Below, piece after piece: positions 58,552-59,096 of a stretch of DNA of 64,000 nt. The notes under the pieces were generated by a model. It ran no database searches and had not been told where the DNA came from. It was given only the letters and a program-made list of their open reading frames with translations. This DNA is from Escherichia coli (GTDB lineage: Bacteria; Pseudomonadota; Gammaproteobacteria; Enterobacterales; Enterobacteriaceae), in the NCBI RefSeq assembly GCF_001677475.2, contig NZ_CP015229.1; one strand, given 5' to 3'. The stretch's first letter is position 1. Each line of letters starts with the position of its first letter. Both the position numbers and the translations under genes were made by a program.

Positions 58552-59054
58552 AACGCGTCCCCTTCTTAGTGGTTGAACTAACGGACACCTTTCGGGATGG
58601 AAAAAACTTACTGACCTGGACTTGCCCTCTCGTTTGTTAGCTTAACTATAAGCCACTCTTTGCAGGTTTTCATCGCATTATTACGAAAAATTACAATTAG
58701 GAAGGAAGCGGGACAGGACTCACTTTTTCATACTAGCACTAACCCGCAGCAGGTAAAAGTAGTTTGCTCGAACTGTTCATAACATTTCAGGATTATCGCC
58801 AGATGAAATTGGTGACACTAATACCAGGATTGCTCTGAATATGACGTAATAACCGAGGAATGAATAAAGAATTACCGCAAATAATTAAGAATAGCCTCTA
58901 AATGATTATGGATTATTAAATCTATTAGCGCTACTTAATATAAATTTACTAACAATCAGTATTTTTTATGAATTTTATACGTGGTTAATACTGGTTTTCG
59001 TATGAGATCCTGAGTTGGTGGTTCAATTACTCCTTAATGTTCGTAGGTTATGCA

Positions 59055-59078
59055 TAAAAAAGGCCGCTTACGCGGCCT
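59055..59078 (-). terminator. Rho-independent terminator after acrB
   Basis: On the minus strand aaggccgcgtaagcggcc followed by tttttt, immediately 3' of the acrB stop. Confidence 0.7.
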
Positions 59079-59096
59079 TAGTGATTACACGTTGTA

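Follow-up and report, generated by a model that had tools for sequence, protein, structure and literature searches.

The tomB-acrB spacer of Escherichia coli as a probable composite control region of the tomB-hha operon

The 545 bp that separate tomB from acrB in Escherichia coli are very probably a composite noncoding control region of the tomB-hha operon, without a separate RNA or protein product. We analyzed a stretch of 64,000 nucleotides, referred to here as the window, in which this spacer occupies positions 58552..59096; its features are collected in Table 1. Read in the direction of transcription, the region would work as follows. A strong intrinsic terminator right after acrB would end acrAB transcription, and transcripts that read through it would probably meet Rho in the C-rich, AT-rich DNA that follows. 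Next come about 345 bp of fast-evolving AT-rich DNA that, according to published work, bind H-NS and RNA polymerase in vitro and that may carry one or two auxiliary promoter-like elements varying from clade to clade. Just upstream of the −35 element of the main promoter lies a direct repeat from which CpxR~P most likely activates that promoter, direct binding in E. coli being presumed. The main promoter, the sigma-70 promoter P1, is predicted to start transcription about 87 nt before tomB, and the conserved leader of the resulting mRNA may partly mask the ribosome-binding site. The P1 start (~58638), the second promoter P2, and the distal element are all predictions from the DNA sequence.

Through Hha and TomB, the operon affects biofilm formation, persistence, and the silencing of virulence genes together with H-NS, and its switching is therefore of practical interest. 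The spacer is real but ordinary, in that its promoter, its CpxR link, and its H-NS site are already known from RegulonDB-type resources. The comparative points that we add are modest refinements and not a new kind of element.

Table 1 Features of the tomB-acrB spacer, from the acrB end to the tomB end, in window coordinates
Feature	Position	Strand	Elements
acrAB intrinsic terminator	59054..59079	-	stem AAGGCCGC/GCGGCCTT 59079..59060, GTAA loop, T-tract 59059..59054
Escherichia-only insert, ~60 bp	58990..59050	-	missing from most other aligned genera
Distal promoter-like module	58890..58985	-	AAAATCATAAAAT-n-CTTATTG-n-TTTATTTT-n-AATAAG-n-TATAAT, then AAAGGCTATTCTTA
Candidate promoter P2	58730..58757	-	TTTACC-16-TG-n-TAGTAT, extended −10
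CpxR-type direct repeat	58680..58694	-	GTAAT-TTTTC-GTAAT; plus strand ATTAC-N5-ATTAC
tomB-hha promoter P1	58645..58673	-	−35 ATGAAA 58673..58668, 17-bp spacer, −10 TATAGT 58650..58645
tomB 5′ leader, ~87 nt	58552..58638	-	CCAUCCC 58600..58594, hairpin, Shine-Dalgarno GGGGA 58562..58558
Leader hairpin TTAGT/ACTAA	58581..58577 with 58570..58566	-	one covarying pair

Extent, composition, and conservation of the spacer

The minus strand carries all of the genes flanking the spacer, among them tomB (58177..58551) and acrB (59097..62246), and the gap between these two is exactly 545 bp long. A first-pass annotation of this DNA had described a 545-bp spacer without an annotated product. Its coordinates were exact, and nothing is annotated between tomB and acrB in K-12 MG1655 (NC_000913.3). 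When we sampled 60 E. coli genomes evenly over the identity range, we found no native feature annotated in the spacer, the sole feature being an inserted IS1 transposase in one genome. The spacer belongs to the core genome: it was present in 5,423 of 5,426 complete E. coli genomes at 90 to 99% identity.

The spacer had also been called the longest gene-free stretch of the window, and this holds by either of two measures. It is the longest stretch without an open reading frame (ORF) of at least 60 amino acids, the runner-up measuring only 402 bp, and after mapping to K-12 MG1655 the tomB-acrB gap was again the longest without annotation, followed by the cyoA-ampG gap at 459 bp. The description of the spacer as strongly AT-rich, with AT-rich runs, was borne out as well. 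With a GC content of 0.374, compared with a mean of 0.511 over the window, the spacer falls in the lowest 1.8% of 545-bp windows, and the run that had been quoted is found at 58916..58949. A trough at 58800..58999 reaches 0.285, in the lowest 0.15% of 200-bp windows. These values give the spacer the AT-richness of an H-NS region. It is not the most AT-rich DNA of the window, since positions 565..1260 are lower in GC, and the cyoA-ampG spacer is equally AT-rich (0.351). The composition is thus typical of long E. coli promoter spacers.

For a comparison between species, we scanned species-representative genomes for TomB and obtained 80 loci, which we oriented by tomB. The acrB-tomB spacer could be delimited in 76 of them, giving 77 sequences with the window included. 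Across these 77 species, which represent many genera, the spacer is 435 to 559 bp long and has a GC content of 0.35 to 0.40. An alignment of 22 genera showed two strongly conserved zones, namely, the acrB terminator hairpin and the proximal ~155 bp adjoining tomB. Compared with four other Escherichia species, the proximal 155 bp are 0.86 to 0.89 identical, against 0.70 to 0.78 at the 4-fold sites of acrB and tomB; in other genera, the corresponding values are 0.63 to 0.75 and 0.52 to 0.58. The distal ~345 bp show an identity of only 0.61 to 0.68 to the sister Escherichia species, at or below that of the 4-fold sites, and therefore evolve at about the neutral rate or faster. Judged by these identities, the proximal 155 bp are under clear constraint and the distal ~345 bp are not, and what appears to be conserved in this long AT-rich spacer is its length and not its sequence, a first point that our comparison adds.

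One locus (NZ_JAATUR010000032.1), labelled Escherichia coli strain SCPM-O-B-8794, has a TomB that is 98% identical to that of the window but a spacer that is only 71% identical, unlike all 5,423 matching complete E. coli genomes, which are at least 90% identical in the spacer. This locus probably belongs to a cryptic Escherichia clade.

Promoters and leader of tomB-hha

P1 is the best promoter-like site of the spacer. It was found by a consensus scan, with 9 of 12 positions matched, and it also had the top score (10.96) in a weighted scan. The site could be anchored in 75 of the 77 species; its −10 element was TATAGT in all 75 loci, and its −35 element was ATGAAA in 44 and GTGAAA in 27, that is, one or the other in 71. 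By its hexamers, spacing, strand, and conservation, ATGAAA-17-TATAGT reads as a sigma-70 promoter. The usual distance from the −10 element to the transcription start is 7 nt, and we placed the predicted P1 start near 58638 because we took this distance to apply. The first-pass annotation had expected the hha-tomB promoter to lie in the spacer. This agrees with the invariant −10 element and with the work of Shimada et al. (2014), who reported a constitutive tomB-hha promoter in the tomB-acrB spacer with hexamers identical to those of P1 (PMC3946193). Binding of the RpoD holoenzyme in the spacer was detected by SELEX in that work, where “constitutive” means that RNA polymerase alone binds in vitro (PMC3946193). 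P1 and P2 both lie under a published sigma-S chromatin immunoprecipitation sequencing (ChIP-seq) peak, which was assigned to tomB and spans 479920-480115 in the older K-12 numbering.

Directly upstream of P1 lies TGTAATTTTTCGTAAT, the most conserved block of the spacer (identity, 0.90), and the CpxR-type box lies inside it. The box was kept in 75 of the 77 species, and in 74 it stands 44 bp from the −10 element; in the window, 56 bp lie between the beginning of the box and the predicted P1 start. This fixed distance to the −10 element across the family is one of our comparative additions. The CpxR consensus is given as TTTAC-N4-8-TTTAC in an excerpt that quotes Yamamoto and Ishihama (PMC13353760). 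Set against it, ATTAC-N5-ATTAC matches at 4 of 5 positions in each half, or 8 of 10 overall, and the box thus has the tandem pentamers expected of a CpxR-regulated promoter. An older name of tomB is ybaJ, and the genes around ybaJ in the EcoCyc run of targets are ones that we take to be Cpx regulated.

The published record bears on this box from several sides. The name ybaJ appears among the response-regulator targets of EcoCyc (PMC3118216). Both tomB and hha are CpxR targets in RegulonDB, and tomB is part of the CpxR iModulon; in the ChIP-exo study with that iModulon, tomB is missing from the list of direct CpxR targets (PMC7657598). Regulon membership is thus published, and from the position and sequence of the box CpxR~P most likely activates P1 by binding there, direct binding in E. 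coli being our assumption.

The CpxR-activated sigma-70 promoters of E. coli include those of cpxP, degP, yccA, and spy. The tomB-hha promoter resembles this class in its tandem pentamers with a 5-nt gap, in their location just upstream of the −35 element, and in the membership of the operon in the CpxR regulon. It differs in having half-sites that read GTAAT and not GTAAA, in being absent from the ChIP-exo direct targets, and in being classed as constitutive as well.

The plus strand has a promoter-like site of its own, TTCATC-17-TACAAT (58669..58697; score, 9.4), which overlaps the CpxR box and would be directed at acrB. Its −10 element is the reverse complement of the invariant CpxR-type box, and we treated this putative site as a by-product of the AT-rich palindromic context.

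Among the minus-strand sites of the spacer, the candidate promoter P2 ranks second by promoter score (9.0). Transcription from it is predicted to begin near 58723, about 172 nt ahead of the tomB ATG and 85 nt upstream of the predicted P1 start. E. coli, several Citrobacter species, and S. diarizonae have a motif of the form TGnTAnn[A/C]T at 44 to 47 bp upstream from the CpxR-type box; the extended −10 element of P2 was not found upstream of the box in Enterobacter or in the sister Escherichia species. A genuine P2 would have the CpxR box at about +29 to +43 of its transcript, an arrangement in which CpxR could favor P1 over P2.

The closest known system is the tomB-hha homologue ymoBA of Yersinia pseudotuberculosis. 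Published mapping found that its transcription begins at two sites separated by 82 nt, one 188 nt and one 106 nt ahead of ymoB; a CpxR motif located between these sites precedes the downstream one (TSS2) by 56 bp. CpxR~P shifts the ymoBA promoter fragment in electrophoretic mobility shift assays and raises promoter activity. We compared the two systems by this published geometry. The predicted P2 and P1 starts of E. coli are 85 nt apart, close to the 82 nt mapped in Yersinia, and the E. coli box likewise begins 56 bp upstream of the (predicted) downstream start. The leaders differ: from the predicted starts they measure 87 and 172 nt in E. coli, against 106 and 188 nt in Yersinia.

Within the P1 leader, the CCAUCCC element hardly varies, and it contains CAUCCC, the complement of the GGGAUG found at the Shine-Dalgarno sequence. 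Among 30 species, this complementarity pairs in 95% of the cells compared, and in most genera the minimum-free-energy fold includes the helix. No compensatory change was seen in the 6-bp helix in these 30 species. When applied to the leader, RNAalifold recovered only this anti-Shine-Dalgarno helix, without covariation (covariation term, −0.17). The inner TTAGT/ACTAA hairpin contains a single covarying pair, which is G-C in 9 sequences and U-A in 8. The E. coli leader folded as a single sequence was not unusually stable (z = −0.41). Taken as a prediction, the pairing of CAUCCC in the conserved leader may make the ribosome-binding site partly inaccessible.

In the term-seq data of Adams et al. 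(2021), an abundant 3′ end lies at tomB +72 (K-12 480636, minus strand; window 58479), in a significant Rho termination region, and another 3′ end maps to the tomB/hha junction (K-12 480307) (PMC7815308). These 3′ ends suggest premature termination or processing of the tomB-hha mRNA. Since the first of them is abundant and falls in a Rho-sensitive region, a translation-coupled Rho attenuator in the tomB leader is conceivable but unproven.

The acrAB terminator and the distal zone

The acrAB terminator begins 17 nt past the acrB stop codon. It has an 8-bp stem with six G-C pairs, a 4-nt loop, and a TTTTTT tract, and it was the only terminator-like site when we scanned 58100..59300. The hairpin is present in almost all of the 22 aligned genera, and identity to E. 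coli peaks over it at 0.88. Its stem changes in pairs, becoming GGTCGC/GCGACC in C. amalonaticus and exchanging the outer A-T pair for G-C in Klebsiella and Raoultella. With its GC-rich hairpin, T-tract, and compensatory stem changes, this site is an intrinsic terminator.

Just beyond the terminator, part of the Escherichia-only insert together with the bases just downstream (59026..58967) gives a sense RNA that is rich in C and poor in G, with 9 to 11 C residues against 3 to 5 G residues per 40 nt. Going by this composition, the RNA may serve for the loading of Rho as a backup to the terminator. Adams et al. (2021) reported an “orphan” Rho termination region at K-12 481133 on the minus strand, which is window position 58976 (Rho score, 2.08; P = 5.6e-6) (PMC7815308). 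This position lies just downstream of the C-rich, G-poor stretch and is consistent with Rho mopping up acrAB read-through, with the proviso that the Rho call compares 800-nt windows and its position is imprecise (PMC7815308). The call could equally be attributed to tomB transcription induced by bicyclomycin and not to termination inside the spacer.

The high-affinity nucleation motif of H-NS is tCG(t/a)T(a/t)AATT. We found two matches with two mismatches in the spacer, and the motif was not enriched (202 matches in the whole window against 182 expected). H-NS binding in the spacer therefore rests on composition and on published genomic SELEX, in which Shimada et al. (2014) flagged the tomB-acrB spacer “HNS” (PMC3946193). 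The latter result agrees with the first-pass annotation, which had thought the spacer a likely binding region for a nucleoid protein of the H-NS type. The spacer resembles other H-NS-bound AT-rich spacers in being a long AT-rich region upstream of a stress or biofilm operon and in having an H-NS SELEX site that overlaps a spacer bound by RNA polymerase. Also as in that class, it has many promoter-like sites and a Rho signal nearby. The number of such sites above the 99.5th-percentile score, counted on both strands, is 13, against a mean of 5.5 per 545 bp, which puts the spacer in the 95th percentile of 545-bp windows. It differs from the class in offering no good match to the nucleation motif and in being core genome (5,423 of 5,426) and not horizontally acquired.

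The distal zone contains a promoter-like module that is common to most genera and lies just past the acrB terminator, amid DNA that otherwise cannot be aligned. Its conservation outside E. coli is the third comparative addition made here. In 48 loci, exactly 35 bp separate ATTG from the hexamer; the Klebsiella/Raoultella group has 25 bp there, shorter by one helical turn. In most genera this hexamer is a TATAAT-type element about 355 nt upstream of tomB, and it reads TATAAT in 31 loci and TATCAT in 13. In E. coli it is AATAAT (58917..58912), and in three sister Escherichia species it is AATAAC, which suggests that E. coli and its closest relatives are losing the element. The module has a poor −35 position and a conserved stretch between that position and the −10 position; together, these two properties suggest a promoter that depends on a regulator or is occupied by one. 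We compared the module by eye with the consensus sites of IHF, Fur, PhoP, PmrA, ArcA, RcsB, and MarA and found no convincing match to any of these regulators. In published SELEX with the RpoS holoenzyme, a peak at 480454 (in the coordinates of that paper) falls in the spacer just below the acrB stop codon (PMC5493296).

The module and the leader together raise the question of whether tomB-hha is under layered control, beyond a single CpxR-activated promoter. Such control would combine the conserved distal promoter-like module with the candidate masking of the Shine-Dalgarno sequence by CAUCCC. To our knowledge, neither the distal module nor a Shine-Dalgarno-masking leader is part of the E. coli annotation. 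If layered control did operate, the RNA made from the distal module would be either an unstable transcript of its own or a very long leader, about 350 nt in length. The masked Shine-Dalgarno sequence would lead to poor translation initiation and leave the RNA exposed to Rho, and the abundant 3′ end at tomB +72 would follow from this. On the present sequence comparisons, we consider layered control of this kind rather doubtful.

The composite control region that we favor assigns a role to the distal zone. An alternative restricts function to the terminator and the proximal ~150 bp and treats the distal ~345 bp as neutral filler, AT-rich through mutation bias alone. The distal identity of 0.61 to 0.68, at or below the 0.70 to 0.78 of 4-fold sites, is what such filler would show, and the 60-bp lineage-specific insert speaks for a tolerance of indels. 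IS1 at four different sites in natural isolates and the lack of enrichment of the H-NS motif point the same way, as does a transposon insertion in the spacer that was even selected in long-term culture (PMC5010248). Filler is nevertheless hard to reconcile with a length held between 435 and 559 bp in 77 species of many genera, given the bacterial deletion bias on useless DNA. It also leaves unexplained why a module with a fixed 35-bp spacing and TATAAT is conserved amid unalignable DNA and why both H-NS and RNA polymerase holoenzyme bind the spacer in vitro (PMC3946193, PMC5493296). We regard the neutral reading as quite unlikely and retain that of a composite control region.

Search for a hidden gene, and insertions in natural isolates

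The first-pass annotation had seen room in the spacer for an unannotated small RNA or small protein and had called for small-ORF prediction below 60 amino acids. Room there is, with 545 bp, the 13 promoter-like sites counted above, and the conserved TATAAT-type element ~355 nt upstream of tomB in most genera, and small ORFs do exist. We checked all ORFs of at least 10 codons on both strands in K-12 and four other Escherichia species. Ten were tested, and every one loses its start, gains stops, or shifts frame in the sister Escherichia species; none is preserved there. The 21-amino-acid ORF at 58608..58673 on the minus strand overlaps the −35 element of P1 and stops after six codons in Salmonella and Citrobacter. 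A 13-amino-acid ORF at 58860..58901 on the plus strand coincides with a conserved DNA block, but three of the four species lack its start codon, and only 1 to 2 nt separate its GAGG from the ATG.

A permissive Rfam scan (E ≤ 1) matched no family in the window spacer or in eight related loci, and published term-seq under three growth conditions has no curated 3′ end within K-12 480709..481253 (PMC7815308). We rejected a free-standing small RNA gene on these two results, on the lack of a second intrinsic terminator besides that of acrB, and on the distal sequence, which is not conserved and diverges at or above the rate of 4-fold sites. A small protein gene was rejected because none of the ten ORFs tested remains intact in the sister Escherichia species. 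With no native annotation in K-12 or in the 60 sampled genomes either, a hidden small RNA or small protein gene is highly improbable, and we take this as a strong negative result rather than as proof.

Insertions in the spacer occur in nature and in culture. Among complete E. coli genomes, IS1 lies within the tomB-acrB spacer in strains FAM21845, GF4, 88COLEC, and SEV1, at four different sites (58651-58659, 58676-58683, 58824-58832, and 58929-58937) and in both orientations. The tomB promoter is interrupted by two of these insertions, of which one separates the −35 from the −10 element and the other separates the CpxR-type box from the −35 element. A fifth genome has IS1 in the spacer with partial coverage. 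A mini-transposon insertion in the tomB-acrB spacer was selected during a 700-generation culture (PMC5010248).

Elsewhere in the window, the 3′ end of malZ and acpH are separated by an AT-rich segment of about 1.66 kb (486..2145) that is missing from K-12 MG1655. Its GC content of ~0.30 is the window minimum. It carries a 485-amino-acid ORF (671..2128, plus strand) that had no above-threshold Pfam match, its lone sub-threshold match being Cas_CT1975. The segment looks like a strain-specific island.
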